Source: Microgenomates group bacterium GW2011_GWC1_46_15
GTDB lineage: Bacteria > Patescibacteriota > Microgenomatia > UBA1400 > UBA12028
NCBI GenBank assembly: GCA_001002285.1
Contig: LCLX01000003.1
Span: 76,915 to 140,914 of the forward strand
Direction of reading: 5' to 3'
Length of the DNA stretch: 64,000 bases
The notes under the pieces: generated by a model
Told to the model about the DNA's origin: nothing
Seen by the model: only the letters and a program-made list of their open reading frames with translations
Database searches by the model: none
Program-made: the position numbers and the translations under genes
Shown here: positions 30,734 to 46,876 of the stretch, piece by piece
How the letters are laid out: each line of letters starts with the position of its first letter
How positions within the stretch are numbered: position 1 is the stretch's first letter

Positions 30734-30806
30734 TGGGAGCGCTTGGATTTGAACCAAGAACCTTGAAGGTATAAGCTTCCTGCGCTAACCGTTGCGCCAC
30801 GCTCCC
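30734..30806 (-). tRNA. tRNA-Ile (anticodon UAU), no encoded CCA
   Basis: Hand-folded cloverleaf. Acceptor GGGAGCG/CGCTCCC, D-arm GCGC-AACGGTTA-GCGC, anticodon arm GGAAG-CTTATAC-CTTCA (U33, UAU, A37), T-arm CTTGG-TTCAAAT-CCAAG, discriminator A73. Confidence 0.75.
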
Positions 30807-30911: not shown

Positions 30912-31193
30912 ATGAATAAAAAAATTCGTACACAAAATATTATTAAAGTCGGGAATAGCCTCGCCGTTACATTGGATAAAGCCTTTGTTGACGCCTACAA
31001 ATTAAAAGCAAAACAGCAGGTTTACATACTTTATACTCAGTATCCCCCGCGAATTATTGTGAAACCCGATTTTTCTCAAGGACCATCACTCACTCAGTCC
31101 GATATAGAAAAATTGCCAAAAGAGTTCCGTAATTGGGTGAAAAAATTCCTCAAGGAAGATCACGAAGCTCTTAAGGCTTTAACACATCTATAG
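30912..31193 (+). CDS. AbrB/MazE-like swapped-hairpin DNA-binding protein (putative)
   Basis: IKVGNSLAVTLDKAFVD motif resembles AbrB/SpoVT-type domains. 93 aa. Confidence 0.4.
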   Translation: MNKKIRTQNIIKVGNSLAVTLDKAFVDAYKLKAKQQVYILYTQYPPRIIVKPDFSQGPSLTQSDIEKLPKEFRNWVKKFLKEDHEALKALTHL

Positions 31194-33521
31194 TTTCGCC
31201 CGCACCGTAATTTCCGCCTCAACAATCTCCTTGTGCTTTCCGTACTTCAACAGTGACAACTCCTTAATCATCTCCGCAACTTTGGGGTTCTTCATTGCAT
31301 TTTCTTTCGTCATATCTCGAGTCAAATCCATACTAAATGCTGGCACCGGTTCATTATTCACAATTGTCTTGGTATATACATGGAATCGCTCAATATTGGT
31401 CAAATCGCTCTCATTAAACACTGGAGCAAACTCGTGTTGCAAAAAGTTTGCGTCCGGCACACCAATGCGGAAACTAATCAATGTACCGACGTTGCCAAAC
31501 ACCGCGTTCTTTACGTCTTCCTCGATCTGCGCGACAAACTGGTTTGCCACGATGAGGTTCAATTTGTACTTGCGGGCTTCGGACAAAATTGTCGCAAAAT
31601 CTTGTGTTGCAAAGTTTTGGAACTCATCAACATAGAGATAAAAGTCGCGGCGTTGCTCGAGCGGAACGTTAACACGCGACATAGCGGCTGCCAAAATCTT
31701 TGGCACCATAATCAAGCCCAAAAACTTGGCATCTTCTTCTCCAAGCGCACCTTTGGACAAGTTCACGAGTAAAATCTTGCCCTCATCCATCACTTCGCGT
31801 AGATTAAACGCGGACTTGCTCTGGCCGATAATGTTGCGCATTGTTTTGTTCGTGATAAACCGGCCAAACTTGGACACGATGTAGTCAAGCACCTCCGACT
31901 TATGGAAGTCGCTTGTTTGGGCAATTTGGTCGGTCCAGTACCGGCGCACAACGGGGTCTTTCACTTTTGGCAGTAAATCCTGCAAGAACTTGCTGTCCGT
32001 CAGCACGCGCACCAACTCAATAAACGTGCTTCCCGGCTCGGCCATGATCGTGAGCATAGCGTTGCGGATCGCGTGTTCAAACCGCGGGCCAATGATACCG
32101 GTTTTGTGTGGATCGTAGAGTTTGTACATCAGCCCAATAATCGAGCCAGCCACAAAGTGCATCTGTTCTTCGGTTTCTGCTTCCATCATGTTCAAACCCA
32201 TAGGACGGTCGGTGTTTGACGGGTTAAAGTAAATAACATCCTCCGCGCGCTCGGGCGGCATGAGCAAGAGTAAATCCTCAACGAGGTCGCCGTGCGGATC
32301 AATCACCGCCATACCTTTGCCCGCGCGGATATCCTGCAATACCATGTCTTTCAAAAACTCAGACTTCCCGGCGCCGGTTTTACCAACAATGTACATGTGG
32401 CGCTGGCGGTCTTTTTCGGCAATATAAATATTGCGTGAGGAACCGCGGTACACACTGCGCCCCAAGAACAGGCCGGAGGTCGGGATTTCGGAAGGAGCCG
32501 GCGCGTTTTTCGCTTTGAGCCAATAAATATGGTGCGTTTCAACCGTTTTGTTCGGGAAGTGGATCATCGTCGCTAACTCTTCGCTGTTGAACACCGTAAC
32601 GCCCCGGCCAAACAACGGCATGTACCGGTAAATGAAGTCAATCATGAAGAGATGTTTGAACCAAATACGGGTCTTTTTGAGATGATTGTGCGCAGACGAG
32701 TACTGCGCGAACGACCCCACAATGTTTGTGAGGTGCGAGTTTGCCGCCATCGCGCTGGTTGAAGAAACAACGATGCGGATTGCAGTTCGGAAACCGGATT
32801 TGCCAAGTTTCGTGTCGATAGAGTCCAAAGACTTGGGATCGTGTGTATAGCTCGCCTTCTCGGGATCTGCTTCTTTTTTCTTTGTTGAAGCAAGGTAACT
32901 TGCACCACGTCTCTGCCATCCTTCACCCGCGGGCTGGAGAACATACTGCACAATCGCCCCCTCCCCCTGCTGCATCTTGGAAAGCGCCGATGTTAACAGC
33001 GATAATCCGTCGGTTGGCAACTCTTTAAATGTTTTAATCGGGAAAAACTCAGACTCTTTGAGTGTGAGCGCAGCAAACGCGACTTTGCCTCCCTCGCTGA
33101 AAATATTTGGTTCATCAACTTCATTGATTTCCGCGCCCGGATATGCCCCATTGATCTGTTTTTCAATCAAGTCGCGCAAGTTCCGCGGACAGGTAAAGTA
33201 AAACTTGATTTCATCGTGAAGCGCGATCACTTCGAACGCGAAGTGGTCTTCGGCGTGGAGAAAATGGAAAAATCCTGATTTCTTTAACGAGTGAAGCGAG
33301 GCAAACATCTGTTCAGCCGCGTCAATTTTAATTTCGTTGTCTTTTGGAAGCGCGACCAACAAATGAATGAACTGCAGACTGTACTCCTCACGGTCGCGGT
33401 GCTTCCACCACTGGATAAATGCATACACAAACGCCGCGAAAAGCGCCACACTCAGCACAAGCACTACTACCGTACTCAATAATGCGGTCATCCGAACGAC
33501 AAAAAGATCAAGTTGATTCAT
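31188..33521 (-). CDS. Membrane-anchored P-loop ATPase of the HerA/FtsK/VirD4 (T4CP-like, DUF87-like) superfamily
   Basis: N-terminal TM. Walker A IVGKTGAGKS followed by VIDPHGDL. Walker B LYVDEFQNF. 777 aa. Confidence 0.55.
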   Translation of the reverse strand: MNQLDLFVVRMTALLSTVVVLVLSVALFAAFVYAFIQWWKHRDREEYSLQFIHLLVALPKDNEIKIDAAEQMFASLHSLKKSGFFHFLHAEDHFAFEVIALHDEIKFYFTCPRNLRDLIEKQINGAYPGAEINEVDEPNIFSEGGKVAFAALTLKESEFFPIKTFKELPTDGLSLLTSALSKMQQGEGAIVQYVLQPAGEGWQRRGASYLASTKKKEADPEKASYTHDPKSLDSIDTKLGKSGFRTAIRIVVSSTSAMAANSHLTNIVGSFAQYSSAHNHLKKTRIWFKHLFMIDFIYRYMPLFGRGVTVFNSEELATMIHFPNKTVETHHIYWLKAKNAPAPSEIPTSGLFLGRSVYRGSSRNIYIAEKDRQRHMYIVGKTGAGKSEFLKDMVLQDIRAGKGMAVIDPHGDLVEDLLLLMPPERAEDVIYFNPSNTDRPMGLNMMEAETEEQMHFVAGSIIGLMYKLYDPHKTGIIGPRFEHAIRNAMLTIMAEPGSTFIELVRVLTDSKFLQDLLPKVKDPVVRRYWTDQIAQTSDFHKSEVLDYIVSKFGRFITNKTMRNIIGQSKSAFNLREVMDEGKILLVNLSKGALGEEDAKFLGLIMVPKILAAAMSRVNVPLEQRRDFYLYVDEFQNFATQDFATILSEARKYKLNLIVANQFVAQIEEDVKNAVFGNVGTLISFRIGVPDANFLQHEFAPVFNESDLTNIERFHVYTKTIVNNEPVPAFSMDLTRDMTKENAMKNPKVAEMIKELSLLKYGKHKEIVEAEITVRAKL

Positions 33522-33533: not shown

Positions 33534-34052
33534 CTACGCGATTCTCCGGTACACCACCATTCCTTTAAACTTTTTCATCACACGGATACACCACTCCGCA
33601 AGCCACCGTACGCTGTCTGTCACGCTTTTTGTGACACCCGTTTGGATACCGGATTGCGTGAGCGGGAGCACAATGACCGGCTGCGCCGCGTAGTCTCCCG
33701 TTGGCATGGTTGCCGTTTTGTCTGCCACCACCACTTGTTTTGGCGCGGTAATCTCGTGCGACTCCACTTTTTCCATCCACGTTTCAAGCTCTGGCGGAAG
33801 TTCTGCTGATCTTTCCGATTCAACAATCTGAGCCCCGGGGACTTCCTTTACTAATGTGTCAAGACCGCCCGTCGCGGTGCGTTCTTTTGTACCACTCGTT
33901 TTCCCGCTTACTGCTCCAAGAGGGTTTAATGGGTCAGTTGTTGCGGTTGACTGCAGTACGGCGTTCGCCAAACTGTCGTCTTGCACAATAGCTTGAGGTG
34001 TTTGCGGTGGTGCCTGTGATGTTTGTGGTTGATTCTGGGCAGAGTCCGGCAT
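33534..34052 (-). CDS. Hypothetical protein, low complexity (Gln/Thr/Pro-rich)
   Basis: ORF only. Lies between the cobO-like gene and the T4CP-like gene on the same strand. Confidence 0.3.
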   Translation of the reverse strand: MPDSAQNQPQTSQAPPQTPQAIVQDDSLANAVLQSTATTDPLNPLGAVSGKTSGTKERTATGGLDTLVKEVPGAQIVESERSAELPPELETWMEKVESHEITAPKQVVVADKTATMPTGDYAAQPVIVLPLTQSGIQTGVTKSVTDSVRWLAEWCIRVMKKFKGMVVYRRIA

Positions 34053-34064: not shown

Positions 34065-34652
34065 TCAGAAATCGAGTCCCTTGACAGCGAGTTTTCCCGC
34101 GTCAAAAGGATGTTTTTCTTTCTGAATCACACTCACGAGATCCGCAACTTTCTTTAAGCCAGCCGAGGCATTCCGGCCGGTCAATACAACGTGCGTTTTC
34201 CCTCGCTGTTTAAGCAGTTCCAATACATCGCTTTCCTTTAGTAATTTATCGTGGACCGCGTTGCACACTTCATCAAGAAATAAAACATCAATATGTTGAA
34301 GAAGAAGCGCGCGGACTTTCTCCAGCGCCTCGTGGGCAGCACGACGGTGCTGGGCTGGCGTATCATCATCAACAATCACACTTGATTGTGCGCGGACGGT
34401 TCTAACCGCTCCATGTTGCTGGACTGACCTCAGATAAAATCCCTTGCCCATCGGGAAGAAAAGGAGCCGTTTTTTTGCCGAAGTATTCAGAATTTCGCTA
34501 AGGTGGTGCTCGTTAATCCCCCACCGCTTTTCTTTGTACCAACTCACCCATCCCACACTCCATCCATTGGTTAGCGCGCGCAAAAGCATTCCAAGCGCCG
34601 CGCTCGTTTTTCCTTTGCCATCACCCGTAAATATGTAGATTAAACCGGACAT
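34065..34652 (-). CDS. cobO: Cob(I)yrinic acid a,c-diamide / cob(I)alamin adenosyltransferase (CobA/CobO/BtuR family)
   Basis: P-loop IFTGDGKGKTSAALGMLLRA matches the CobA GNGKGKTTAA signature. About 195 aa. Confidence 0.75.
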   Translation of the reverse strand: MSGLIYIFTGDGKGKTSAALGMLLRALTNGWSVGWVSWYKEKRWGINEHHLSEILNTSAKKRLLFFPMGKGFYLRSVQQHGAVRTVRAQSSVIVDDDTPAQHRRAAHEALEKVRALLLQHIDVLFLDEVCNAVHDKLLKESDVLELLKQRGKTHVVLTGRNASAGLKKVADLVSVIQKEKHPFDAGKLAVKGLDF

Positions 34653-34703
34653 ATCACACACTCCGTGGTAGAAATGAGAATGCGACGCCATTGTATGCCG
34701 AAG

Positions 34704-36299
34704 TTATTGCGCGAACAAGCCTCGGAAGACTCTGTAGTACCAGGGAGTCTGCTGGCTTCCTCCTGGAATCGTTCTTGGAACAGGAATGTACCGTATTGGG
34801 TTATACCAGGGTAACGGAGTGGGTGTTGTGACTTGCTTTGTTGTTGGTTTTGATGTTGGTTTCGGTGTCGCACACACTCCGCTGTATGAAACTTTTACTC
34901 CGTTTTGTTCTGCCGTACACGCATTGCTATATGTTCTGCCGTCCGCACCACATACAGGCATGTATTCCTGCGAACATACTCCATTTGTTAATGGTGTGGA
35001 AATCGGTGTTGCGTATGGGTACGGTGTGGCATAAGGGTACGGAGTCGCGTACGGAGGATATGGCGTAGTGTATGGGTACGGTGTGGCATATGGAGGGTAT
35101 GGCGTAGCGTATGGATATGGAGTGGTGTATGGATAAGGTGTTGATAACGGCGGAGGTGTTACAAGAATCGGCGTTGCATACGGACGGGAAGTTGCATACG
35201 GATATGGTGTGACTGGTGGACGAGGAGAAGGACACATAAGTACCGGCTCGCAAGGAGCTTTTATACACGTAACCTGTGCGTAGTAACATCCACTCGATGT
35301 GGGAGTAGCTTTTGATGTTGGAAGAGGGCTCGATATTGGAGTAGGCATTGGGGTAGATTGCGGAGTCGCTCTTGGTGTTGAAATCGGAGTAGCGGATGTT
35401 GTTAACTTCGACAAATCAACCTCAACGACCGTACTAGGGAGAATACCCATCACTTTTTGGCTGACTATTTTTGTACTCATTCTCACTGGAGGAGCTTGAG
35501 TTTTTGGAACCGCGGCAAGATCTGAGGCGGCGTATACCATAACGAGAGGCAATCGGGTGTGCAACGCCACCTGAACAGCCGCATCTTTAGCATTCTTTAC
35601 ACGCCCTTTGAGTGTTACCACATTTTTTACCACTGTTATCCCGTCAAAAGCAAAGAAATCGTACAACGCCCCCTTTGTCATAACAAAACCACTCCCCTTG
35701 TAGACCACGGACTCTGTTGATGGAGGTGATGAGGGTGGAGTCGTTCGTTGTTGCGAAGATGGTGTTTTTCCGTCTTCAACAGCTACCGCTGCGTATACCG
35801 GTTGGACTACACTTATTGGTTTTGTCGTTTCTATCGAGATACTTGCCTCAACGGAAGTAATCGTGATGTTTTTGTTTAGCTGAGACGCCTCCATATACAG
35901 AGCTTGTCCGGTCCCGTATTGGGGAGATGGCTTCTCTGCTTCCGTTATTTCTATTTTTGCGGATTGATCTGCGCTTGCTTGTGATCGATTATCAGTGGGA
36001 ACTTGTAGAAGATCCAGTCCGACAATACCACCAGAAATAATAATGGCCGCGGTTATACCCCCAATCAGATAATTTTTTATAATGTTTGAAGATGGACCAG
36101 TGGTTTTTGGTTGAGGTTCCGGAGTGGGTTCTATAACGGGTTCAACTGGTTGGATTGGTGCTATTTCTGGGGCTGGCGATACTACTGGTGGAGCAGGAAT
36201 TGAAGCATCAACGGGAGACAAAGAGCTCTCGGGTACTAGATGTTGTGGGCTGGAGTTTGGATCTACGGGCACTTGCCCGGAGAGTACTGGATCGTCCAT
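34704..36299 (-). CDS. Type II membrane/surface protein with Pro-rich N-terminus, PYPYATP tandem repeats and a C-terminal Kazal-type domain
   Basis: TM GGITAAIIISGGIVGL after a Pro-rich N-terminus. Repeats (A/T)TPYP(P)Y x about 9. C-terminal CSQEYMPVCGADGRTYSNACTAEQNGVKVSYSGVC fits the Kazal consensus PVCG[SA]DGxTYxNxC...C. Confidence 0.6.
   Translation of the reverse strand: MDDPVLSGQVPVDPNSSPQHLVPESSLSPVDASIPAPPVVSPAPEIAPIQPVEPVIEPTPEPQPKTTGPSSNIIKNYLIGGITAAIIISGGIVGLDLLQVPTDNRSQASADQSAKIEITEAEKPSPQYGTGQALYMEASQLNKNITITSVEASISIETTKPISVVQPVYAAVAVEDGKTPSSQQRTTPPSSPPSTESVVYKGSGFVMTKGALYDFFAFDGITVVKNVVTLKGRVKNAKDAAVQVALHTRLPLVMVYAASDLAAVPKTQAPPVRMSTKIVSQKVMGILPSTVVEVDLSKLTTSATPISTPRATPQSTPMPTPISSPLPTSKATPTSSGCYYAQVTCIKAPCEPVLMCPSPRPPVTPYPYATSRPYATPILVTPPPLSTPYPYTTPYPYATPYPPYATPYPYTTPYPPYATPYPYATPYPYATPISTPLTNGVCSQEYMPVCGADGRTYSNACTAEQNGVKVSYSGVCATPKPTSKPTTKQVTTPTPLPWYNPIRYIPVPRTIPGGSQQTPWYYRVFRGLFAQ
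35000..35260. repeat. Coding tandem repeat (about 24-27 nt units, Tyr/Pro-rich) within the 34704-36299 gene
   Basis: Repeated tatgggtacggtgtggcata / tatggcgtagYgtatgg units are visible in the nucleotide sequence. Confidence 0.7.
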
Positions 36300-36400: not shown

Positions 36401-37030
36401 TTATTGACGATATCCCGTCTTTTCGAACACACTCTCCTCTATATTTACATCAACTTGCACACCAAGATCTTCCAGCATATCGCGCACAGTCATAATGGGA
36501 AAACCAACCACATTCATCGCGCTCCCCCGAACCCCTTCAACAAAGTCTTTTGCCGTCCCCTGCAGGGCATATCCACCAGCCTTGTCATACGGTTCACTAG
36601 TGGCAATGTATTTCTCGAGCGTAGTATTGGAAAAACGTGTAAACGTCACATCGCTCCGCACAACTTCCGTCCGCTTCTCCCCCGTTTCACCATCGTGCAT
36701 CACAACCGCAGTAAAGACCTGATGTGTTCTTCCTCTCAGGGTTGAAAGCATAACACGTGCGTCATCCAAGTTTTTTGGTTTTCCATATGCTTTACCATCC
36801 AAAAAAACAGTGGTGTCCGCACCAATGACGATTGCATCGGGGTGGCGTTTTTCAACGGTTAACACTTTCCCTAAAGCGATCGTTGAAACGTAGTCTTCCG
36901 GATCATCAAAGTCTGAAAACCGCACCGATTCCTCTGGAAAATCGCTGACATCAATCTCAAAAGGAATGCCGAGCCACTTTAGAATTTCCTGCCGGCGGAA
37001 CGAGCTGGAAGCAAGTACAAGATGTTTCAT
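36401..37030 (-). CDS. maf: Maf-like nucleoside triphosphate pyrophosphatase / septum formation protein
   Basis: LVLASSSFRRQEIL N-terminal Maf signature. Start at MKHLVLASSS. Confidence 0.8.
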   Translation of the reverse strand: MKHLVLASSSFRRQEILKWLGIPFEIDVSDFPEESVRFSDFDDPEDYVSTIALGKVLTVEKRHPDAIVIGADTTVFLDGKAYGKPKNLDDARVMLSTLRGRTHQVFTAVVMHDGETGEKRTEVVRSDVTFTRFSNTTLEKYIATSEPYDKAGGYALQGTAKDFVEGVRGSAMNVVGFPIMTVRDMLEDLGVQVDVNIEESVFEKTGYRQ

Positions 37031-37090
37031 CATTTGGTATATTTTGGTATACTTTGGTGTGTTCAGTATTGTATATGAAAGGAGTGATGT

Positions 37091-37645
37091 ATGACAATTT
37101 CTTTTAAACATTCTCTTGCTATTTCCACCATTGTTGTCTTCTTGTCTTTGGGAGTATCATCCGCCCTTGCTACAGAAAATGCTTCCCCAAGTCCAAAAAC
37201 ACGCATCAGAGAAAAGGCTGAGGAGAGACTAGAAAAACAGCAAGAAAAAAGAGAAGAAATTTCTGATCGGAAATCAGTCAATTTGGAAAAGCACTGTACC
37301 GCAATTCAGTCCGGTTTTACAAACATTATCTCAAGAATAAACAGTAGAATTGAAAAACAAAAAGCAGAAGGACGGGATGCCACAATCGCTTCTCAACATG
37401 TTGCGTCCGCTCAAACAGCGCTTGACTCCGCGGTTTCACTCTGCAAACAATCGGTTGCAAAGTTTGACTCTGTTCCTGCTAACAGTTGGGCAACACAAAA
37501 AAGCATTATTCAAGAAGCCCGCTTACTTGCAAAACAGGCACACGATCAGTTTGTGGCCGCGCGGAAAAGCGTTGTTGCAGCAATTCGTGCGCTCAACACA
37601 ACGCGTAAAGATAACAAGACAAACACAACGGAAGGAGAAAAATGA
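37091..37645 (+). CDS. Hypothetical secreted coiled-coil protein
   Basis: Signal peptide then a charged helical sequence. No motif. Confidence 0.35.
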   Translation: MTISFKHSLAISTIVVFLSLGVSSALATENASPSPKTRIREKAEERLEKQQEKREEISDRKSVNLEKHCTAIQSGFTNIISRINSRIEKQKAEGRDATIASQHVASAQTALDSAVSLCKQSVAKFDSVPANSWATQKSIIQEARLLAKQAHDQFVAARKSVVAAIRALNTTRKDNKTNTTEGEK

Positions 37646-37890
37646 TCTCTCTAAAATATATTGCATTGATTGCCGGAGCTAGTGTTATTTTTGGAGGATG
37701 TTCACTGTTAAACCAGGTAAAAAATGTCATAAACACGACAAATACCGCGGATACGGCAACACAGGTTACCGCTTCCCCTACTCCAGTTGCCGCGTCACCA
37801 AGTACGACACAAAGCGATGATACAGGAAGCATTCAAAAAGATGTGGACTCGCTCTCTATTGAGAGTGATTTCAACACACTCGTAAAATAA
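37642..37890 (+). CDS. Putative small lipoprotein
   Basis: Signal peptide with lipobox-like ...IFGGC. 82 aa. Confidence 0.4.
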   Translation: MISLKYIALIAGASVIFGGCSLLNQVKNVINTTNTADTATQVTASPTPVAASPSTTQSDDTGSIQKDVDSLSIESDFNTLVK

Positions 37891-37907
37891 TTTGAGTGTA
37901 TTGAAGT

Positions 37908-40244
37908 TTAGAGTTTGCACTTGCTGTACCCACACTGTAGGCAGAGATTGCACCCCTCTTGATTTTGCATGAGCGCGCCGCACTCCGGACACTTTTCTCC
38001 TTCTTCGGGAATATCAAAAACATCTTCACGCAGTACTTCTTGCTTTGTGAGCGTGGAAAAATCCTTTCGCTGCGCAAGCGGTGTAACTCGGTGCTGACTC
38101 TGCATAATTTGATGTGATTTTTTTGGCGTTGAAGCCTCTGCTGGTGAAGGTGCCGCTTGGGTTTGGTGCTGAACAGAAAGAACCTGTGTTGCCTTCGATG
38201 TATCGCGGTACACCGTAATACCTTTGCACCCCAATTTCCAGGCGAGTAGGTAGGCGCCGCGGACATCCTCAAGCGTTGCGTTGGCGGGAAAGTTAATTGT
38301 TTTACTCACCGCATTATCGGTATGATCTTGAAACGCCGCCTGCATGCGCACGTGCCACTGCCAATCAATATCATGCGAGGTAACAAATACGCGTTTGAGC
38401 TCGGATGAAACGATTGTGCTGTGCTGTACTCCACCGGTTTGTGTTACTTCAGCAACAATCGCATTGAACTCACCATTACTCCCGACATGTTCTTTCAACG
38501 CTCGCTCAAAATATTTATTAATGTATGTGAGGCCAGCGGTGTCAACAACATTCTTTACGTAACTCAGCGCAAAAATCGGCTCGATGCCACTGCTACAGTC
38601 CGCCGCCATTGAAATTGTTCCCGTTGGTGCAATTGTTGTAATTGCGACGTTGCGGAACTTGCGCGGTTTCTTTTTGTGTCCATAGGTATGTGTAACCGGA
38701 TCATATCCTTTGGCAAACCAACTGTTTTTCCATTGTGGAAACGCGCCTTTTTCTTTTGCCAATTTTTCCGAAGCGCTCCACGATGATTCTTGTACGTGTT
38801 TCATGATTTTCTTTGCTAAAGCAACGCCTTCATCGGAGTTATATGGAATGTTGAGTTGAAGCAGAAGGTCGGCCCAACCCATTACACCCAACCCAATCCG
38901 CCGGTGTTGGTGCACGGTTTTTGTGATTTGCGGAAGAGGGTATGTGCACGCGTCAATCACGTTGTCTAACATACGAGTCGCGATCGCGGTAACAGTGGCT
39001 AAACGGTCCCAGTTTATGGTGGTGTGACCTGTTTTTTCGTCTTTTAGTGCAAATGCAGAAAGATTGATTGATCCGAGGTTACACGAATCAAATGAGTGCA
39101 AAGGTTGTTCGCCACAGGGATTAGTCGCATAAATCGGCCCAACAGAGTCTAACAATGGGTTGTTGCGGTTGATCACATCCCAGTAAATCATCCCAGGATC
39201 CCCCGTTCTCCACGCAAGCGATATGATCTGATCCATCAACATACGCGCCAAAATATTTTGGACTGGTTTGTTGGTACGCGGATTCACGAGTGCAAACTCT
39301 TTATCTTTTTCCACAGCACGCATAAACGCATCCGTTGTCCCAACCGAAATGTTGAAGTTGCTAATCTCCCCCTCTTCACTCTTGCACGTAATGAACTCCA
39401 AAATGTCCGGGTGATGAACGGTTAAAATACCCATGTTGGCACCGCGTTGTTTCCCACCCTGCATAACTTGGCGCGTTGCAATGTCAAACACTTTCATGAA
39501 TGAAACCGGGCCTGTAGCAAAACCGCCGGAAGATTTTGTAATCCCATCGCCTTTGGGGCGTAAGCGTGAAAAATCAAAACCCGTCCCACCACCTTTTTGA
39601 TGCACAAGTGCCGTCCACTTCACCGCATCAAAAATACCTTCCATACTGTCTTCAACTGGAAGGACAAAGCAACTTGCAAGCTGATTTTGTGGTGTTCCCG
39701 CGTTATTGAGTGTACGACCACCAGGCAGAAATTCAAATTTTGTCATGACGTCATAAAATTTTTCTTCCCAGATTTTCTTGTGCTTTTTTTCTACAGTGGC
39801 AAGTGTGTGGGCAACACGGCGGAACATTTGGCCGGGAGTTTCCATCGGCTTTCCATCCTGATCGTGAACAAGATACCGCCGTTCAATGACTTTGAGCTGA
39901 TTGATATTGAGATTGAGATCATTCTCTACTCCAATAACGGTCTCCGCTTTGCGGATTTTGGCATGTTCAGCGCGATACAAAATGTATGCTTTTGCGGTCT
40001 TAAAATGGCCAGCGGCCATGAGCACTTGCTCAACCGTATCCTGCACTTGTTCAACGGTAACCAGTTCTTTGCGGACAACAATCACTTTTTCGATAATGCC
40101 CGCGGCGATTCCCGCTAACCGTTGTGCTTCTTTGTCATCAAACTCGCCCGTTGCAATTGCTGCTTTGTGAAGCGCCAACGCGATTTTAACTTTTTCAAAC
40201 GGCATTTCGCGCCCATCGCGCTTAACGATTGTCATGGAGCTCAC
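37908..40244 (-). CDS. nrdJ: Class II (adenosylcobalamin-dependent) ribonucleotide reductase, paralog 1
   Basis: ATP-cone-like N-terminus. Radical-site loop TNPCGEQPL. C-terminal CxxC...CxxC zinc ribbon (CPECG...CLQCGYSKC). Confidence 0.85.
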   Translation of the reverse strand: MSSMTIVKRDGREMPFEKVKIALALHKAAIATGEFDDKEAQRLAGIAAGIIEKVIVVRKELVTVEQVQDTVEQVLMAAGHFKTAKAYILYRAEHAKIRKAETVIGVENDLNLNINQLKVIERRYLVHDQDGKPMETPGQMFRRVAHTLATVEKKHKKIWEEKFYDVMTKFEFLPGGRTLNNAGTPQNQLASCFVLPVEDSMEGIFDAVKWTALVHQKGGGTGFDFSRLRPKGDGITKSSGGFATGPVSFMKVFDIATRQVMQGGKQRGANMGILTVHHPDILEFITCKSEEGEISNFNISVGTTDAFMRAVEKDKEFALVNPRTNKPVQNILARMLMDQIISLAWRTGDPGMIYWDVINRNNPLLDSVGPIYATNPCGEQPLHSFDSCNLGSINLSAFALKDEKTGHTTINWDRLATVTAIATRMLDNVIDACTYPLPQITKTVHQHRRIGLGVMGWADLLLQLNIPYNSDEGVALAKKIMKHVQESSWSASEKLAKEKGAFPQWKNSWFAKGYDPVTHTYGHKKKPRKFRNVAITTIAPTGTISMAADCSSGIEPIFALSYVKNVVDTAGLTYINKYFERALKEHVGSNGEFNAIVAEVTQTGGVQHSTIVSSELKRVFVTSHDIDWQWHVRMQAAFQDHTDNAVSKTINFPANATLEDVRGAYLLAWKLGCKGITVYRDTSKATQVLSVQHQTQAAPSPAEASTPKKSHQIMQSQHRVTPLAQRKDFSTLTKQEVLREDVFDIPEEGEKCPECGALMQNQEGCNLCLQCGYSKCKL

Positions 40245-40663
40245 TTCTCTTCCTCCGGAGTGTAAAGCGGATGTCCCCCACGGGTTGCCGCTTTGATTTT
40301 GTAGTACGCACGGTCTTTTTCCTCTTTTGTAAGGTTGGGATGAAAAATTTCTTCCGGATACTTGACCGCATTCTTTGCCATCTTACGTTCAAACGCTTCC
40401 GCCATATCTATGCCAAGTTTCTGACCCAAATTGGCAAGCCACCACAATACATCGCTCATTTCCTCGCCAATCGCTTCTTTAATGCGCTGATTTTTTTCAA
40501 CATCTTCTCCTTTGAGCCATTGGAAATGTTCGAGAAGTTCGGCACTCTCCAACACCAAAGAAAGCGCGAGGTCTTTTGGATCTTCTTTTGTCCATCCGCG
40601 TTTTTTGCGGAACTTTTCAATAAGCTCTTTAACTTGGGCGATTGTTGTTGTTTGGTCAGTCAT
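40241..40663 (-). CDS. mazG: MazG-family nucleoside triphosphate pyrophosphohydrolase
   Basis: MazG EExxE/ELLEHF-type helical motifs (SLVLESAELLEHFQW). 4 bp overlap with nrdJ. Confidence 0.7.
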   Translation of the reverse strand: MTDQTTTIAQVKELIEKFRKKRGWTKEDPKDLALSLVLESAELLEHFQWLKGEDVEKNQRIKEAIGEEMSDVLWWLANLGQKLGIDMAEAFERKMAKNAVKYPEEIFHPNLTKEEKDRAYYKIKAATRGGHPLYTPEEEK

Positions 40664-40674
40664 TGTTCTCCTTT

Positions 40675-41163
40675 TTACACTGTTTTTACGTATTCATCAA
40701 TGACTTTCTTGTGATCGAATGCAATTTTTTCTGGGAGTTTATCGAAGGAAAACCACTGAATATCTTCGATCTCTTCGTCTTGCTTCTTAAGTTCTCCACT
40801 CAATCCTGTGGCAATAAAACAGTGCCCGATATTTTGGCGGCCATCAAAGTCTCTGTATATATCATCATTCAATCGGAAAAATATCATTGTTTTTGCGCGT
40901 AAACCAGTTTCTTCAAAAAGTTCCCGAGTTGCAGTTGCCGCAAGAGTTTCATCCCAATCAACATAACCACCAGGTAAAGCCCACCACCCCTTTTGCGGGT
41001 CAAGTCCACGCTTTACCATAAGAATACAACCTTGCGCATCCTGGGTAATGATTTCAACGGTACTATTTCTTACATTAAACCGCGCGCAATGTTCACAGAA
41101 CTCTCCCTTTGGAATTTTTCCCGTCGGGTAGTCTTTCCAGGTAGCGTGTGTTAAATCAGCCAT
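40675..41163 (-). CDS. NUDIX hydrolase with N-terminal Zn-ribbon-like segment
   Basis: Nudix box GGYVDWDETLAATATRELFEETG. Confidence 0.75.
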   Translation of the reverse strand: MADLTHATWKDYPTGKIPKGEFCEHCARFNVRNSTVEIITQDAQGCILMVKRGLDPQKGWWALPGGYVDWDETLAATATRELFEETGLRAKTMIFFRLNDDIYRDFDGRQNIGHCFIATGLSGELKKQDEEIEDIQWFSFDKLPEKIAFDHKKVIDEYVKTV

Positions 41164-41204
41164 AATATGTGTCTGTAATACCTAGATAAGATAAAAATTT
41201 CTTC

Positions 41205-41256
41205 GAGGAACTCAGGGCGCAGGGTCCTCTGGAGACGAAAAGAGATTTTTATCGAG
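41205..41256. repeat. Conserved hairpin-forming intergenic repeat, copy 2
   Basis: GAGGAACTCAGGGCGCAGGGTCCTCTGGAGACGAAAAGAG, about 85% identical to 30677-30727. Lies immediately 3' of nrdJ paralog 2 and 5' of the Nudix gene. Confidence 0.6.
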
Positions 41257-43500
41257 CTACATCGTGCACTTACTCCACCCGCAGTCCGGACAGCTTACAC
41301 ACCCACTTTCAAACTTCAATGAGGCAGAGGCACACTCGGGGCAGATTTGTTTTTCTCCTGATGCTGGCTTCGTTGTATGTGTGTGTATATCCGAACGCAT
41401 TGTGGCATCCTTTGAGAGTTTGCTTTCCTTCCCCGCTACATTGAGCACTTGATCCATTTTACTGCCGTCGCGGTAGATCGTAATGCCTTTAAGCCCAAGT
41501 TTCCATCCAAGCATGTACGCTTTCTTCACGTCTTCAACCGTTGCGTTGTGTGGAAAGTTGATCGTTTTACTTACTGAGTTATCAATCCACTTTTGCCACA
41601 CCGCTTGAATTTTGACGTGCCACTCGGGAGAAATATTGTGCGTGGTTGCAAATACACGCTTCGCTTCTTTGCTTAATTCTTTGACATGTTCTACGCCACC
41701 GTCCTGTAAAACTTGCTGCATAATGCGGTTACGTGTGACTTCATCAAAATTTTGCTGAAGATACTCACCAAACACTGGATCGGCGATGGTAAATTCCCGA
41801 GTCGGTGCGTTTGCATGATTATCCTCATTAAAACTGCGGCGCACTTGGACAAGTGAAAATACCGGCTCAATACCAGAACTTGTATTTGCTAACAACGAAA
41901 TTGTTCCCGTTGGGGCAACCATCATCACCGCACAGTTGCGATATCGTTCAGAAGTTCCAGCATACACCGAAACATCAAAATTGGGGAATGGGCCACGAAT
42001 TTTTCCAAGCTCCAGTGAAGCCTCTTCTGCTTTCTTCCGGATGAATTTTGCGAGATGGTCAGCAACGCGCACAGCTTCTTCACTGTTATATGGAACCCTC
42101 ATTCGATATAGTATGTGCGCAAAACCCATCACTCCTAAACCGATACGTCGGTTTCCGTCTTTCACCATCTGCCTGATTTCATCCAACGCATACGTGTTCA
42201 CTTCAATCATGTCATCCAAGAAACGGACACCAAGCTTGACCGATTTTTCGAGATCGTCCCAATCAATTTCCCAATCGCCTTTTTTGTTTTTGACAAGGTG
42301 GCGGTTGAGATCGATTGATGTTAGATTACACGATTCATAGGGCAATAATCCAATTTCTCCACAGGGATTCGTTGCATCCATAATCCCAATTGACGGGGTT
42401 GGATTGTCTTCCTGAAGACGGTCTAAAAACGCCAAACCCGGATCGCCGGTGGCCCACGCGTGTTCTGCAATCAGCTCAAAAATCTCCCTTGCCTTTATGG
42501 TCTTCCACACTTCGCCATTGCGGGGATTAAGTAAATCCCATTCTTTGTTTGCCTGCACGGCCTCCATGAACTTGTTGGACACTCCAACCGAAATATTGAA
42601 GTTTTTAATCGTGCCATCCTGATCTTTCAGTGTAATGAAATCAACAATATCGGGATGATCTGCATTCAAAATCGCGATGTTTGCCCCTTGCCGCTTTGCT
42701 CCCTGTAAAATTTGAGCAAGCGCGGCAGAAAATGCTCTCAAAAAGTCTACCGGCCCGGATGCTGCTTTCGGAATATTTTTGACTTTGTCTCCGTGCGGTC
42801 GGATTCTCGAAAAATTAAATCCTGTTCCGCCATTGTTTTTATGCACAACCGCGGCATCACCAAGTGTTTTAAAAATCTTTTGGATACTGTCTTCTATCGG
42901 CAGAACGAAACAACTGGATAACTGACCTGTTCCTCCGGGATTTCCCGCTTCAAACATCGCTTTGCCCGCGCACACAAACTTTAAGTTCGCCATGCGCTCG
43001 TAGAACTTCCTGGCTGTTTCATCAACAATACCGTTCTCCCCCCACTGAATTTCTGCCTTCGCCATGTGGCGGGCAACACGCCACAACATTTCGCCCGGTG
43101 TTTCAACAACTTTCCCGTTCATGTCGGTGCGGAGGTAGCGTTTTTTTGCAATTTCGTGCGCGGTATCGGTTAAATTCGGCTCAGTAATAGCAAGTTTTTT
43201 GTGTTTCTGTTGTTTTTTCTCACCGTACAAAATGTAGTACTTCGCGGTTGCAAAGTATCCCGCTTCGGCAATGGTTGGCTCAACAATGTCGCGGATTTGT
43301 TGAACGGTAAGCGTGTTTTCTTTTACTACCGCACGCGCGAGTTTCACTTGAACTTTTTTTGTGATTTCAGTAGCAATTTTTTTATCGTACTCCCCCGTAT
43401 CTTTTCCAGCAGCCTCAATAGACGCGGTGATCTTCTCCAGAGTAAAAGGCTTCTTTGTGCCATCCCGTTTGATGACAAACTGTATTGATGACGTTTGCAT
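41257..43500 (-). CDS. nrdJ: Class II (adenosylcobalamin-dependent) ribonucleotide reductase, paralog 2
   Basis: TNPCGEIGLLPYESCNL radical loop. ATP-cone-like N-terminus. C-terminal Zn ribbon. Confidence 0.85.
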   Translation of the reverse strand: MQTSSIQFVIKRDGTKKPFTLEKITASIEAAGKDTGEYDKKIATEITKKVQVKLARAVVKENTLTVQQIRDIVEPTIAEAGYFATAKYYILYGEKKQQKHKKLAITEPNLTDTAHEIAKKRYLRTDMNGKVVETPGEMLWRVARHMAKAEIQWGENGIVDETARKFYERMANLKFVCAGKAMFEAGNPGGTGQLSSCFVLPIEDSIQKIFKTLGDAAVVHKNNGGTGFNFSRIRPHGDKVKNIPKAASGPVDFLRAFSAALAQILQGAKRQGANIAILNADHPDIVDFITLKDQDGTIKNFNISVGVSNKFMEAVQANKEWDLLNPRNGEVWKTIKAREIFELIAEHAWATGDPGLAFLDRLQEDNPTPSIGIMDATNPCGEIGLLPYESCNLTSIDLNRHLVKNKKGDWEIDWDDLEKSVKLGVRFLDDMIEVNTYALDEIRQMVKDGNRRIGLGVMGFAHILYRMRVPYNSEEAVRVADHLAKFIRKKAEEASLELGKIRGPFPNFDVSVYAGTSERYRNCAVMMVAPTGTISLLANTSSGIEPVFSLVQVRRSFNEDNHANAPTREFTIADPVFGEYLQQNFDEVTRNRIMQQVLQDGGVEHVKELSKEAKRVFATTHNISPEWHVKIQAVWQKWIDNSVSKTINFPHNATVEDVKKAYMLGWKLGLKGITIYRDGSKMDQVLNVAGKESKLSKDATMRSDIHTHTTKPASGEKQICPECASASLKFESGCVSCPDCGWSKCTM

Positions 43501-43520
43501 AGATTTCTCGATTCTACCGA

Positions 43521-45599
43521 CTACACACTACATTTGCTATACGCACAATTGGGACACGTGAAACACCCTTCTTGAATAACAAGCGTTGTTCCACATTCCG
43601 GACACGCTTCTTCACCCGGCGCTACTTTAACCAACGGTGCGCCCACAAACGCTTCATTAGCAAATGTTTTTCCTTCTTTCTCGCGCTTCTTCTTTGTCTC
43701 ACCCGTTTCCAACACAACCTTATTACGGCTCCCCGTCACATACACTGTCATTCCCTTGAGTCCAAGCTTCCAGCCTTTGAAGTACGCCTTCCACACTTCC
43801 TCTTCTGTGGCATCGGCAGAAAAGTTAATCGTTTTTGAGATCGCGTTGTCTACAAACCGCTGGAGCGCTGCTTCCATTTCAACGTGTTCATCAACCGGCA
43901 CATCGCCCGAAACCACATACACATTGCGGATCTCTTTTGGCACCTCGTCTATGTCTTGACATGTCCCATGCTGCCGGACTTTTTCAAAAATATTCTCTTG
44001 CTGAGATTGACTCACGCCCGCGCGTTCGAGCGCCTCTTTAAATAATCCACTTTCGTAGTACAACTCACGGAAGTCCTGTCCAATTTTTTCCGCACCCTCG
44101 TGTGTGCGCATCACATAACTCAACGCAAACGCCGGCTCGCATCCATATCCTTCCAGACCGGAAATTGTTGCGATGGCACCCGTTGGTTGGATTGTGTTTT
44201 GGCAACTATTCCGTACGCCAATTTTTCTAATATCGGCCTCTAGTGATTTCCAGTCCAACTTTGGCATGTTAAATCTATGTTTGTACGGGTACAAAGACTT
44301 TGGGGGGCTCCACACTTCAATGTTTTTCGTTTTTAATACCGCAGCGTTCTGTGGACTGTAATCATATCTACTCCCTTTGATTCCAGGAAACGCGCCGCGC
44401 TCCTGCGCGAGTTGATTCGACGCGCGCAACGTATGGTACCGGATAAACTCCATGATCTGTCCCGCACAATCAATGCCTTTTCTGCTCCCATACCGCGTAC
44501 CGATTTTGTACAACACATCCGCCAAACCCATAATGGATACGCCAATGCGCCGGTTGTGTTTCGCAGCCTCTTCTAATTGAGGAACAGCCGATACATATTT
44601 ATTCGTATCTACAACGTCATCAAGCCACCGCACCGTCCATTCAACCGTTTCGCGGAGTTTTTCCCAATCAACGCTATATGCAAAAATACCTTTTTTCCCG
44701 TTTTTCACGTGTTCCGCCAAGTTAATCGAGGCCATACAGCAGTTTTCGAAAGGCAATAAAAATTGTTCGCCGCATGGGTTTGTCGCTTCCAAATCTCCCT
44801 GCGCCGGCGTTGGATTTTCTCGGTTTGCGGCATCCAAAAACAACACTCCTGGTTCGCCGTTGTGATGCGCGAACTTTACAATTTCTACAAACAACTCCCG
44901 CGCTTTTACTTTTTTCCATACTCCGCCATTTCGTGGATTAATCAACGGAAAATCTGTATTTTTCTCTACCGCGCGCATGAATGCATCGGTAATACCAACC
45001 GAGATATTAAAGTGTTCAATCACGCCTTCTTTTTCTTTGCAGTGAATAAAATCGTAAATATCCGGATGATGGACCGGTAAAACTGCCATACACGCCGACC
45101 GCCTTCCTCCACCCTGCCCAATCACCCAAAACGCGGTGTCATATACTTTCAAAAATGAAACTACGCCCGTTGCTTTGCCCTTGGACGAACCAATTGAGTC
45201 CCCCTTAGGACGGATCCGGCCAAATGAAAATCCTACTCCTCCGCCGGACTGTAAAATCAAAACGGCATTGCGTAGCGTGCTAAAAATCCCATCCTGAGCA
45301 CGGCCCATATCATCATCAATCGGGAGAACGAAACAGTTCGCGAGCTGGCCCCACCCAGTTCCCGCGTTGGCCAGTGTGCGGCCGTTGGGCATAAACCGGA
45401 ACTCACTCAACAACGACACAAACATCTTCTCGACTTTTTCTGGAGTCGTTCCATCGCGGTACGCGTGTTCTGCCTGCGCGACAACGTGGGCACACCGCGC
45501 CAAGATGTCTTCAACTTTTTCCGTTGGCTTGCCGGAGTCATCCCGCAGGGCATACCTGTTGATCATGACTTCTTGCGCGTTTGGTGTTAGTTTTTTCAT
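43521..45599 (-). CDS. nrdJ: Class II (adenosylcobalamin-dependent) ribonucleotide reductase, paralog 3
   Basis: TNPCGEQFLLPFENCCMASINL radical loop. C-terminal CPECG...CPNCAYSKC Zn ribbon. Confidence 0.85.
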   Translation of the reverse strand: MKKLTPNAQEVMINRYALRDDSGKPTEKVEDILARCAHVVAQAEHAYRDGTTPEKVEKMFVSLLSEFRFMPNGRTLANAGTGWGQLANCFVLPIDDDMGRAQDGIFSTLRNAVLILQSGGGVGFSFGRIRPKGDSIGSSKGKATGVVSFLKVYDTAFWVIGQGGGRRSACMAVLPVHHPDIYDFIHCKEKEGVIEHFNISVGITDAFMRAVEKNTDFPLINPRNGGVWKKVKARELFVEIVKFAHHNGEPGVLFLDAANRENPTPAQGDLEATNPCGEQFLLPFENCCMASINLAEHVKNGKKGIFAYSVDWEKLRETVEWTVRWLDDVVDTNKYVSAVPQLEEAAKHNRRIGVSIMGLADVLYKIGTRYGSRKGIDCAGQIMEFIRYHTLRASNQLAQERGAFPGIKGSRYDYSPQNAAVLKTKNIEVWSPPKSLYPYKHRFNMPKLDWKSLEADIRKIGVRNSCQNTIQPTGAIATISGLEGYGCEPAFALSYVMRTHEGAEKIGQDFRELYYESGLFKEALERAGVSQSQQENIFEKVRQHGTCQDIDEVPKEIRNVYVVSGDVPVDEHVEMEAALQRFVDNAISKTINFSADATEEEVWKAYFKGWKLGLKGMTVYVTGSRNKVVLETGETKKKREKEGKTFANEAFVGAPLVKVAPGEEACPECGTTLVIQEGCFTCPNCAYSKCSV

Positions 45600-46060
45600 T
45601 ATTTTTTCTGTTCATCAATCAGTTTGTGTATTTCCGCACGGAAATCTTCAATGGTTTGGAAATCCCGGTACACGCTCGCGAACAACATATACGAAACGGG
45701 ATCTATTTTACGCAAACGGTTCATCACAAGTTTGCCAATCTCCCAGCTCTTGACTTCCGTTGAGTCTTTTACCCGCAGTTTTTGCTCAATTCCGTCAATA
45801 AGGGCTTCAATTTCTTCCATGGAAATCGGCCGTTTCCACGTGGCTTTCATCAGGCCTTTTTTTACTTTTTCCCGGTCAAATGGCTCCCGCTCTCCATTTT
45901 TCTTGATGACAAAGAGGTCAATCCCCTCGGCCCGTTCATATGTTGTAAACCGTTTGCCACATTTTGTGCATTGGCGGCGGCGGCGCATACTCCGCTGGTC
46001 CGACCCAATGCGGCTTTCCAAAACAGAGGTCTCATCGTGTGTGCAGTATGGACATCGCAT
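45599..46060 (-). CDS. nrdR: Transcriptional repressor NrdR
   Basis: N-terminal Zn ribbon MRCPYCTHDETSVLESR...CTKCGKRFTTYE plus an ATP-cone. Start at MRCPYC. Confidence 0.9.
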   Translation of the reverse strand: MRCPYCTHDETSVLESRIGSDQRSMRRRRQCTKCGKRFTTYERAEGIDLFVIKKNGEREPFDREKVKKGLMKATWKRPISMEEIEALIDGIEQKLRVKDSTEVKSWEIGKLVMNRLRKIDPVSYMLFASVYRDFQTIEDFRAEIHKLIDEQKK

Positions 46061-46124
46061 ACGTGTTGCAGTCGCGGACGACATGCTCCAATAAACTAAA
46101 TCTAGTAGGCAGGGGTTCAGTGAA

Positions 46125-46170
46125 ACACTATTCGTAGTGTTGGTCAACATATCACACACTATCTGAATGT
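46125..46170. promoter_or_regulatory. Tandem NrdR boxes upstream of nrdR-nrdJ operon
   Basis: 16 bp palindrome ACACTATTCGTAGTGT (46125-46140) matches the NrdR-box consensus acaCwAtATaTwGtgt. A second degenerate box cACACTATCTGAATGT lies about 30 bp downstream (46155-46170). Confidence 0.55.
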
Positions 46171-46315
46171 ATCAGGTTTTATTTTCCAGAGTGGAATAAA
46201 ATTCCAGCAATTTTTGAGGGAATATTTTGCGTTTTGGAAGTGGTTGTGCACAACCATATATAATCGCGTACCAAAAAACACTCCAAAAAAGAGTACATTC
46301 GAGTATGTTTTGTTT

Positions 46316-46876
46316 TCATTCCCTCGAGATAAACGACTGCACAGAATTCTGCAAAGATTCCTCATATGACAAGAGTTGGTCTAAAAACACGCGGTCGGCA
46401 TCACGGTACAGTGGTTTGATCCGCAATAACGTAACGTGGTACCCCCGCAGAATACTATCCATTGCGTGAATATCGTCCGTATTGTGCGGGGCATCATTCC
46501 CTATTCCTTCTTCTATCCCAACCGCTTTTCCTACATAGATGAGTCCTTTTGCGAGCGTCGAAGACGCGAGCATCAACTCATTCCTCTCAAGAAGGGTTTG
46601 GGCTGTGTGGAATCTTGCTTTGGAGTACTCGAGATATGTCCTTTTTTTCTGCTGAGAAGAACGCGCCGTCATTAACCGCGCTCTGTCCGAAACCATACGC
46701 AACGCGTACAAAGGATTTCCAGGCAATACATCGCCTGAAAATAACTTTGCCAGTGGCTGTTGATCGTGTGCCGTTGGTTCCTGTAAAAGATCAACAGATG
46801 AAGATCTGAGAGAGAAAAAAAGAATGACAAAACCGAAAAGAAGGAATGACGCCGAAATGAGCGCGTGTTTAGTCAT
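46316..46876 (-). CDS. Hypothetical secreted/membrane-anchored helical protein
   Basis: N-terminal TM/signal. No motif. Confidence 0.3.
   Translation of the reverse strand: MTKHALISASFLLFGFVILFFSLRSSSVDLLQEPTAHDQQPLAKLFSGDVLPGNPLYALRMVSDRARLMTARSSQQKKRTYLEYSKARFHTAQTLLERNELMLASSTLAKGLIYVGKAVGIEEGIGNDAPHNTDDIHAMDSILRGYHVTLLRIKPLYRDADRVFLDQLLSYEESLQNSVQSFISRE

Follow-up and report, generated by a model that had tools for sequence, protein, structure and literature searches.

A stretch of 64,000 nucleotides from contig LCLX01000003.1 of Microgenomates group bacterium GW2011_GWC1_46_15 (hereafter the window) carries on its minus strand an operon in which the gene for the repressor NrdR is followed by three class II ribonucleotide reductase (RNR) genes, nrdJ1, nrdJ2 and nrdJ3, whose products are called here J1, J2 and J3. 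The comparative analysis makes it likely that this locus represents an ancient conserved deoxynucleotide-supply operon of Microgenomates, which belong to the candidate phyla radiation (CPR, or Patescibacteria), with the gene order nrdR-nrdJ1-nrdJ2-(nudix-mazG)-nrdJ3 followed by maf and cobA, and that its three reductases are non-redundant isozymes. Genomes with several nrdJ genes are already known. The conserved three-paralogue nrdJ operon of Microgenomates and the specificity-loop variants of its enzymes are apparently new: no description of a triple nrdJ operon in CPR bacteria or of these loop variants was found in the searchable literature, and CPR bacteria receive no mention in the preprint by Burnim et al. 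on RNR phylogeny.

The six genes of the operon are co-directional and lie head-to-tail in the order nrdR (45599..46060), nrdJ1 (43521..45599, 692 aa), nrdJ2 (41257..43500, 747 aa), a Nudix hydrolase gene (40675..41163, 162 aa), a gene for a MazG-like all-alpha nucleoside triphosphate (NTP) pyrophosphatase (40241..40663, 140 aa) and nrdJ3 (37908..40235). The open reading frame (ORF) of nrdR in the mechanical list reaches a GTG at 46159; its true start is the ATG at 46060, which gives a protein of 153 aa. The nrdJ3 product has 775 aa from the ATG used by gene callers and 778 aa from a GTG at 40244. An initial annotation of this DNA had described an nrdR-nrdJ operon with three full-length tandem reductase genes of 778, 747 and 692 aa, and this layout is borne out. 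The nrdR and nrdJ1 genes overlap by 1 nt, and the subsequent gaps along the operon are 20, 93, 11 and 5 nt. The arrangement is not an assembly artefact, a possibility that is ruled out because six independent assemblies of Rifle groundwater metagenome-assembled genomes (MAGs), labelled Pacebacteria, Microgenomates or "Paceibacterota" and including GCA_001001445.1 and GCA_003525295.1, match the DNA of the window exactly except for short indels.

To judge from domain content, model scores and aligned residues, J1, J2 and J3 are full-length, catalytically complete class II (adenosylcobalamin-dependent) reductases of the dimeric NrdJ type. Pfam models identify the all-alpha domain (Ribonuc_red_lgN) and the barrel domain in each of them; J2 and J3 also have an N-terminal ATP-cone, which is absent from J1. 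The NCBIfam model TIGR02504 (NrdJ_Z; cut-off 400 bits) is passed by J3 with 708 bits, by J2 with 623 and by J1 with 602, or 1.5-1.8 times the cut-off. Models of class I and class III enzymes stay below their cut-offs, except for TIGR02506 in the case of J3 (369 vs 341), a score that the NrdJ model surpasses about two-fold, and the conceivable misassignment of class I or III proteins is thus set aside. No nrdB, nrdF, nrdD or nrdG gene was recognised in a Pfam survey of the 64-kb window.

The closest solved structure to J3 is that of the Thermotoga maritima NrdJ (E 4e-112), whose residues C134, N320, C322, E324 and C333 all find their counterparts; they were placed by direct alignment for J3 and through a multiple alignment for J1, J2, J3 and their orthologues. 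The motif ATNPCGE, aligning with N320, C322 and E324, occurs in each of the three paralogues and in every orthologue sampled. The redox cysteine pair (C134 and C333 in T. maritima) is likewise kept in all three, as the motif L(A/S)(S/N)CFVLP and a Cys located 11 residues past the radical Cys. The C-terminal tail of J1, J2, J3 and orthologues has the six-cysteine pattern CPEC...GC..C..C....C, and six fully conserved cysteines have been described for the cysteine-rich C-terminal domain of NrdJ enzymes (Loderer et al. 2017, PMC5704485). The radical loop and C-terminal Zn ribbon reported for all three in the initial annotation are therefore present, and its loop variants NPCGEQPL (J3), NPCGEIGL (J2) and NPCGEQFL (J1) were quoted correctly.

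The same three genes recur in the same arrangement across Microgenomates, which indicates that the triplet is maintained rather than accidental. Its breadth was estimated from the genomic contexts of exact proteins and from one metagenome scan (a single-protein contig scan gave 4 loci); the related loci are designated below by L numbers. For each paralogue, over 100 clusters of orthologues with 55-98% identity are found in CPR genomes, under the names Pacebacteria, Woesebacteria, Beckwithbacteria, Chisholmbacteria and Microgenomates. The triplet is present in L007-L009 and L011-L015; the order nrdR-J1-J2-J3 followed by maf and cobA is seen in the contexts of distant orthologues (L011, L012, L013 and L015), and the closed 1.27-Mb Woesebacteria genome CP065002.1 (L014) has the triplet in the same order. 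With J1-specific peptides as its seeds, the metagenome scan yielded 79 loci, 30 of which extend at least 4.5 kb beyond J1. All three reductase genes are found in 26 of these 30; one of the other four has J1 and J2 with an intein filling the flank, and three have J1 alone, at 52% identity. Four further metagenome loci with flanks of 2.3-4.3 kb are without J2.

Feature counts in the 26 metagenome triplets define the core unit as nrdR-J1-J2-J3-maf-cobA. Both maf and cobA accompany the triplet in 23/26 cases, and the ATP-cone is found on J3 in 26/26 and on J2 in 2/26, while MazG-like and Nudix genes are present in 6/26 and 3/26, respectively. The window thus belongs to a sub-lineage in which a cone was added to J2 and the Nudix and MazG-like genes were inserted. 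The earlier description of these two genes as embedded in the operon holds for the window (PF00293 and PF12643) and does not extend to the conserved unit.

The triplet is old. Protein identity between the paralogues is 35-40%, in keeping with the high divergence noted previously, and no long DNA similarity is detectable between the three nrdJ genes, which rules out a recent duplication. Recent acquisition, which had been offered as one explanation of the triplet, is contradicted both by this lack of DNA similarity and by the synteny across Microgenomates. In a neighbour-joining tree of 81 sequences with 100 bootstrap replicates each paralogue forms its own clade in 100/100 replicates, and neither any pair nor all three paralogues are monophyletic in any (0/100). 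The tree leaves the deep branching order unsettled and is compatible both with early duplication and with assembly of the triplet by transfers. Single-copy related NrdJ genes of other CPR bacteria stand alone or adjoin either cobA or tmk and tdk (L016, L017). All three genes are under strong purifying selection: the proportion of nonsynonymous differences (pN) is 0.12-0.22, and that of synonymous differences (pS) is saturated at 0.75 or more with one exception; these values are reported instead of dN/dS because synonymous sites are saturated in nearly every available pair.

The differences that are fixed between the paralogues are concentrated in the part of the protein that handles nucleotides. 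Alignment columns that are at least 90% conserved inside each group and different between groups number 48, and 25 of them fall within 100 residues that take in the apical phosphate loop, loop 1 and loop 2 (binomial P 4e-8; Fisher odds ratio against invariant columns 4.0, P 1.7e-4). Loops 1 and 2 of RNRs couple the effector to the substrate, and the apical loop binds the phosphates of the latter; in the T. maritima NrdJ this region makes up the dimer interface and specificity site. Each paralogue has its own apical loop, its own loop 2 and its own cone state. The apical loop is P-N-G-R in 113/113 J1 sequences and P[AG]GR in 113/113 J3 sequences (P-A-G-R in 102 and P-G-G-R, as in the window, in 11); in J2 it is C-A-G-K, as in the window, in 74, with C-S-G-K, V-A-G-K and others elsewhere, and keeps the form xxGK, with Lys, in 106/107. 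Loop 2 reads GQGGGRRSACMA across J1, where it is one residue longer, LQGAKRQGANIA across J2 and MQGGK(K/Q)RGANMG across J3 (MQGGKQRGANMG in the window). The ATP-cone is never found on J1, always on J3 and on J2 in some lineages, including that of the window. The J1 group further differs in an altered distal phosphate loop (PTGTIS to PTGAIA), in the change of SSGIEP to EGYGCEP and in two extra conserved cysteines, C288 and C487. Deep conservation, purifying selection and the fixed paralogue-specific residues of the specificity region together support stable functional divergence of the three putative enzymes, of a nature that this evidence leaves unspecified. The sub-functionalisation proposed in the initial annotation thereby gains support.

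The concentration of fixed substitutions at a presumed dimer interface also suits a different explanation, in which the paralogues form obligate mixed dimers or higher complexes, so that a cone-less subunit comes under the regulation of a cone-bearing one, or specificity is widened by combining subunits that differ in loop 2. The strict gene order, the tight spacing and the one-base overlap of nrdR and nrdJ1 would fit such an assembly, and the C-terminal domain is reported to share in oligomerisation (PMC5704485). We nevertheless consider a hetero-oligomer improbable, since every protein has the full catalytic set and its own electron-transfer tail and would need no partner, and J1-type genes stand alone in some lineages. 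To our knowledge, there is no known case of a heteromeric NrdJ built from full-length paralogues.

The apical phosphate loop also allows a prediction of the substrate, as it sets the preference for nucleoside diphosphates (NDPs) or NTPs (Schell et al. 2021, PMC8365446). Because a Gly followed by Arg or Lys occupies this loop in all three proteins, J1, J2 and J3 are predicted to be NTP reducers that make deoxynucleoside triphosphates (dNTPs) directly. The J3 loop P-G-G-R fits the P-[A/S/G]-G-R pattern of Schell et al., and the J1 and J2 loops keep the Gly and the basic residue. The NDP-type loop P-N-S-P is found in none of the three, and the division of labour between NTP and NDP substrates envisaged in the initial annotation is not upheld. 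The nearest non-orthologous relatives of J3 (45-53% identity), a Bathyarchaeota NrdJ among them, are mostly P-N-S-P enzymes, which places J3 by sequence near the NDP/NTP boundary of the NrdJ family. It is conceivable, if rather unlikely, that the work done in other organisms by one allosterically switched RNR has been partly split in Microgenomates among three dedicated enzymes, each preferring a subset of bases, effectors or phosphorylation states; P-N-G-R (with the altered distal loop) and C-A-G-K would then represent unrecognised specificity types of class II enzymes.

The upstream region of nrdR supports control of the nrdR-nrdJ operon by NrdR through a predicted two-box site. The repressor itself scores 189 bits against the TIGR00244 cut-off of 125 and has an N-terminal Zn-ribbon (PF22811) and a C-terminal ATP-cone (PF03477); R17 and the RRRR motif are kept, and residue 15, as read from the sequence, is Glu. 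On the minus strand a -35-like hexamer TTGACC (46142..46147) and a -10-like hexamer TTCACT (46119..46124, conserved as GTGTTTCACT) form a putative promoter whose 17-nt spacer is occupied by box 1 (46125..46140), a perfect 16-bp palindrome that reads ACACTACGAATAGTGT on the coding strand. Both hexamers, the former as TTGAC(N), and the spacer are conserved in L007 and L009. Box 2, CTACTAGATTTAGTTT (46093..46108), agrees at 9/12 informative positions and begins 32 bp from the start of box 1, leaving a linker of 16 bp. The canonical NrdR site consists of two 16-bp boxes with a 15-16 bp linker (PMC13584703).

The sequence of box 1, ACACTATTCGTAGTGT, has its sole match in the whole window at this place, and 0.57 matches to the relaxed pattern are expected per window by chance, so that box 1 alone is not beyond chance. 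It becomes convincing because of its position in the promoter spacer, of the second box 32 bp away and of the same pair in related loci: the best-scoring pair of boxes upstream of nrdR is 32 bp apart in 42/45 distinct loci, with a mean score of 18.7 of 24, compared with 14.0 (maximum 18) in 225 coding-sequence controls. The NrdR-box palindrome noticed earlier in the nrdR promoter is thereby substantiated. No further NrdR box was detected in the window, and nrdJ2, the Nudix gene and nrdJ3 thus have no separate NrdR sites. A search with Rfam at the gathering threshold detected neither a cobalamin riboswitch nor any other regulatory RNA in the vicinity of the operon; elsewhere in the window it matched only a tRNA and a group I intron.

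Downstream of the reductases, the conserved partners of the triplet on the minus strand are maf (36401..37111; PF02545 at 3e-53), which encodes a member of a nucleotide pyrophosphatase family, and cobA (34065..34691). The cobA product matches PF02572 at 4e-41 (142 bits vs a cut-off of 25.7) and falls below the cut-off of the TIGR00708 equivalog model (110 vs 168 bits); it appears by sequence to be a divergent ATP:corrinoid adenosyltransferase of the CobA/BtuR type. A role for it in making adenosylcobalamin for the reductases is supported by its conserved position and by its replacement in Woesebacteria (L014) with a PduO-type adenosyltransferase. This conserved neighbour also lends indirect support to the predicted adenosylcobalamin dependence of J1, J2 and J3. 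The initial annotation had rightly noted such a gene nearby, but placed it 3 kb upstream; along the direction of transcription it lies downstream of nrdJ3. Besides cobA, the Pfam survey of the window recognised no genes of B12 transport (btu) or biosynthesis (cob). Next to the nrdR operon, L014 (16255-17353) and L015 (4425-5436) carry a pair of genes for a DUF4430 protein and a DUF6580 membrane protein, which in L014 neighbours the PduO-type gene and is a candidate corrinoid-binding and uptake pair; the DUF4430, DUF6580 and PduO proteins of L014 and L015 had no tblastn match in the window.

The window has an adenosyltransferase gene but lacks cob genes for biosynthesis, and the organism would seem to rely on corrinoids obtained by scavenging. 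This suits a reading in which each reductase is adapted to its own scavenged cobamide, or to a particular redox state or temperature, and not to nucleotides and effectors. The group-specific residues argue otherwise, as they are concentrated at the N-terminal end of the barrel, where nucleotides and effectors are handled, and are not spread over its remainder, and a single promoter offers no condition-specific expression. Specialisation for cofactor or condition is accordingly a poor candidate, of still lower probability than mixed oligomers.

Slightly less probable again, and very doubtful in our view, are redundant xenologues, equivalent copies obtained by horizontal transfer that persist in the lag before their loss. 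MazG and Nudix genes beside an RNR resemble phage cargo, and the three clades are not mutual closest relatives, which would allow for separate acquisition at some point. Redundancy is also the proper default for several gene sets of one class, according to the null model of Lundin et al. 2010. The distribution of the triplet is difficult to reconcile with such a lag: the three orthologue groups recur in unchanged order in lineages, among them that of the closed 1.27-Mb genome, between whose orthologues identity is down to 55-60%, all three genes are under strong purifying selection, and their paralogue-specific residues are fixed. In addition, GC content and GC3 (GC at third codon positions) of the three nrdJ genes match the window, and the operon is flanked by conserved chromosomal genes with no phage genes among them. 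Conversion of one or more copies to a pseudo-enzyme or to a non-RNR function, which the unusual phosphate-loop motifs of J1 and J2 and the extra cysteines and altered distal loop of J1 might suggest, can be dismissed as highly improbable, since all aligned orthologues keep the thiyl Cys, both redox Cys, the Asn, the Glu and the six-cysteine tail, the catalytic Cys and Glu whose absence had been considered possible are present in all three proteins, the NrdJ model is passed by a wide factor as given above, and inteins of relatives sit at NP|C of J1 and J2, which is typical of conserved functional active sites.

Several observations weigh against the proposed conserved operon of non-redundant NTP reductases. 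J1-type genes occur without J2 or J3 nearby in L025, L026, L036, L060, L062 and L063. Nudix and MazG-like genes are missing from most triplets and are lineage-specific additions, and their role is not a core one. Gene spacing alone points to co-transcription of the whole unit, and it includes the 93-bp gap between nrdJ2 and the Nudix gene. Scans for sigma-70 promoters and terminators over 37300-46500 gave counts at or below shuffle expectation and are uninformative on internal promoters and terminators. For J1 and J2, NTP reduction is predicted by extrapolation, as P-N-G-R and C-A-G-K lie outside the variants tested by Schell et al. A single NrdR-repressed transcript still seems the best reading, because no further box, riboswitch, or convincing internal promoter or terminator was found.

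The operon of non-redundant isozymes could then work as follows. By analogy with the nrdRJ operon of Streptomyces coelicolor, where the NrdR tetramer binds only with dATP and ATP both present (PMC9110341), the window's NrdR loaded with dATP plus ATP would bind the two 16-bp boxes overlapping the promoter and repress its own gene together with all genes downstream. The cobA product would make the cofactor from scavenged corrinoid, and the six-cysteine tail of each NrdJ, as in the characterised enzymes, would deliver reducing equivalents to the active site. J1, J2 and J3, acting as non-redundant isozymes, would reduce NTPs directly to dNTPs and would differ in shut-off through the ATP-cone, in effector-substrate coupling through loops 1 and 2 and in the apical phosphate loop, with J1 differing also in the distal loop. 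If dNTPs are made directly, dUTP and dCTP would arise without a diphosphate intermediate, and we speculate that the DCTPP1-like MazG protein, the Nudix enzyme and Maf could trim or clean the pool, for instance by conversion of dCTP and dUTP to dCMP and dUMP for thymidylate synthesis.

The products of the two inserted genes keep the motifs of their families. The Nudix product matches PF00293 at 1e-26, and its box GYVDWDE-TLAATAT-RELFEETGL is intact and fits GX5EX7REUXEEXGU; no equivalog model scored above its cut-off to indicate a substrate class, and its PDB matches are generic MutT-like proteins only. The MazG-like protein scores 45 bits with PF12643 (cut-off 27) and has the ExxE (ESAELLE) and EExxD (EEMSD) motifs. 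Its PDB matches are 4qgp (8e-17) and dCTP pyrophosphatase 1 (DCTPP1, 1e-9), the latter being the best named relative with a solved structure.

Why organisms keep several NrdJ enzymes, and what is gained by NDP or NTP specificity, are questions raised by Schell et al. 2021, and the Microgenomates operon is a compact system in which to ask the former. It amounts to a natural experiment, in which roughly 6.6 kb of a genome of about 1 Mb is given over to three presumably co-transcribed paralogues that have been distinct since before the lineage diversified and that differ at the elements of phosphate specificity, effector coupling and dATP shut-off. If the proposed scheme is true, cone-less and cone-bearing enzymes together would give both a regulated and a floor flux of dNTPs. 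This bears on DNA-precursor balance in CPR bacteria, which scavenge nucleotides and cobamides.

The reductase genes of relatives show further variation. Inteins, many with LAGLIDADG domains, interrupt J1, J2 and J3 genes of relatives and are absent from the genes of the window. Those of J1 and J2 are located at NP|C of the radical loop, and those of J3 near residues 217/218 and around 374; they were found in L007 (13285-14402), in J2 of L012, in L021, in J1 of L057, L058 and L079-L083, and in J3 of L049-L051 and L068. The J2 gene of a UBA12128 MAG (L009, 12018-12638) has a frame change near residue 142, which is probably an assembly error because metagenome contig L022, which is nearly identical, has J2 uninterrupted over residues 6-747. 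The J1 orthologue of Woesebacteria (L014, 7554-9995) is extended to 813 aa with a C-terminal TSCPD domain (PF12637), and a similar J1-type gene of 838 aa stands alone with nrdR in L062.

Among the neighbouring genes, two small ORFs of 184 and 82 aa without a family lie on the plus strand between nrdJ3 and maf (37091-37890). Gene calls for both exist in every assembly of this species; L015 has comparable small genes, and L011 and L012 have none. Between maf and cobA, a minus-strand ORF of 531 aa (34704-36299) has a weak match to a Kazal-type inhibitor domain as its sole match and contains a 136-bp indel (35859-35994) that distinguishes the assemblies. Downstream of cobA, also on the minus strand, are a 172-aa ORF without a family (33534-34052) and a gene for a 777-aa DUF8128/TrwB/TraD-like coupling-protein ATPase (31188-33521); both keep the same position in L011-L014 and may be part of a type IV secretion apparatus of Patescibacteria. 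The window also contains a thioredoxin-reductase-like gene (2744-3736), two cytidylate-kinase-like genes and genes for pentose-phosphate enzymes. A tRNA-Ile on the minus strand (30733-30806) has the anticodon TAT (UAU), an uncommon bacterial means of reading AUA. On the plus strand at 63040-63345, an Rfam group I intron match (63089-63300, 62.8 bits) splits an apparent tRNA-Met(CAT) gene, with the flanks GCGGGGTAGTGTACGG...CT | CATAATCTCGCAGACAAGGTTCGACTCCTTGCCCCGCA; after deletion of about 63095-63303, ARAGORN calls tRNA-Met(CAT). Genes for tRNA-Asn and tRNA-Asp that carry group I introns are on record from Patescibacteria (PMC13011429).

Comparison with known systems shows where the operon is familiar and where it departs from them. 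The NrdJ of T. maritima (PDB 1XJE and related entries), the best structural match of J3 with aligned catalytic residues, differs from it in being a P-N-S-P NDP reducer without an ATP-cone, whereas J3 has P-[AG]-G-R. Retention of several class II RNRs in one genome is documented elsewhere (PMC8365446, PMC5704485), with the phosphate-specificity loop usable as a predictor. More than one nrdJ was found by Schell et al. in 1108 of 24,059 representative genomes, and multiple gene sets of one class are called relatively common by Lundin et al. 2010; the statement in the initial annotation that one RNR per class is the norm was therefore too strong. Predicted NDP and NTP types are mixed in 760 of the 1108 multi-NrdJ genomes (69%), and 113 are all-NTP (PMC8365446). 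The triplet, with Gly-Arg/Lys in all its members, is NTP-like throughout and thus resembles the minority class; it is further set apart by P-N-G-R and C-A-G-K, outside the described variants, and by having its three genes together in a single conserved operon. All three proteins keep the cysteine-rich tail, whereas Frankia and some Alphaproteobacteria have two NrdJd proteins of which one is without it. Pseudomonas aeruginosa and other bacteria with RNRs belonging to classes Ia, II and III likewise have several NrdR-controlled and presumably non-redundant RNRs, but these differ in cofactor and oxygen need and are encoded in separate operons, whereas the Microgenomates enzymes share one cofactor, one class and one promoter. 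The closest parallel is offered by the nrdRJ operon of S. coelicolor (PMC9110341), in which nrdR also comes first and is followed by a co-directional nrdJ, the promoter is overlapped by two 16-bp boxes whose linker is 16 bp long, and the repressor shares with that of the window the Zn-ribbon, R17, the RRRR motif and the ATP-cone. The differences are Glu instead of Asp at residue 15 of NrdR, a CPR host with a very small genome, and, in place of a single nrdJ, three such genes together with the inserted Nudix and MazG-like genes. The architecture of the Microgenomates locus is, in this respect, an expanded version of the Streptomyces nrdRJ operon.

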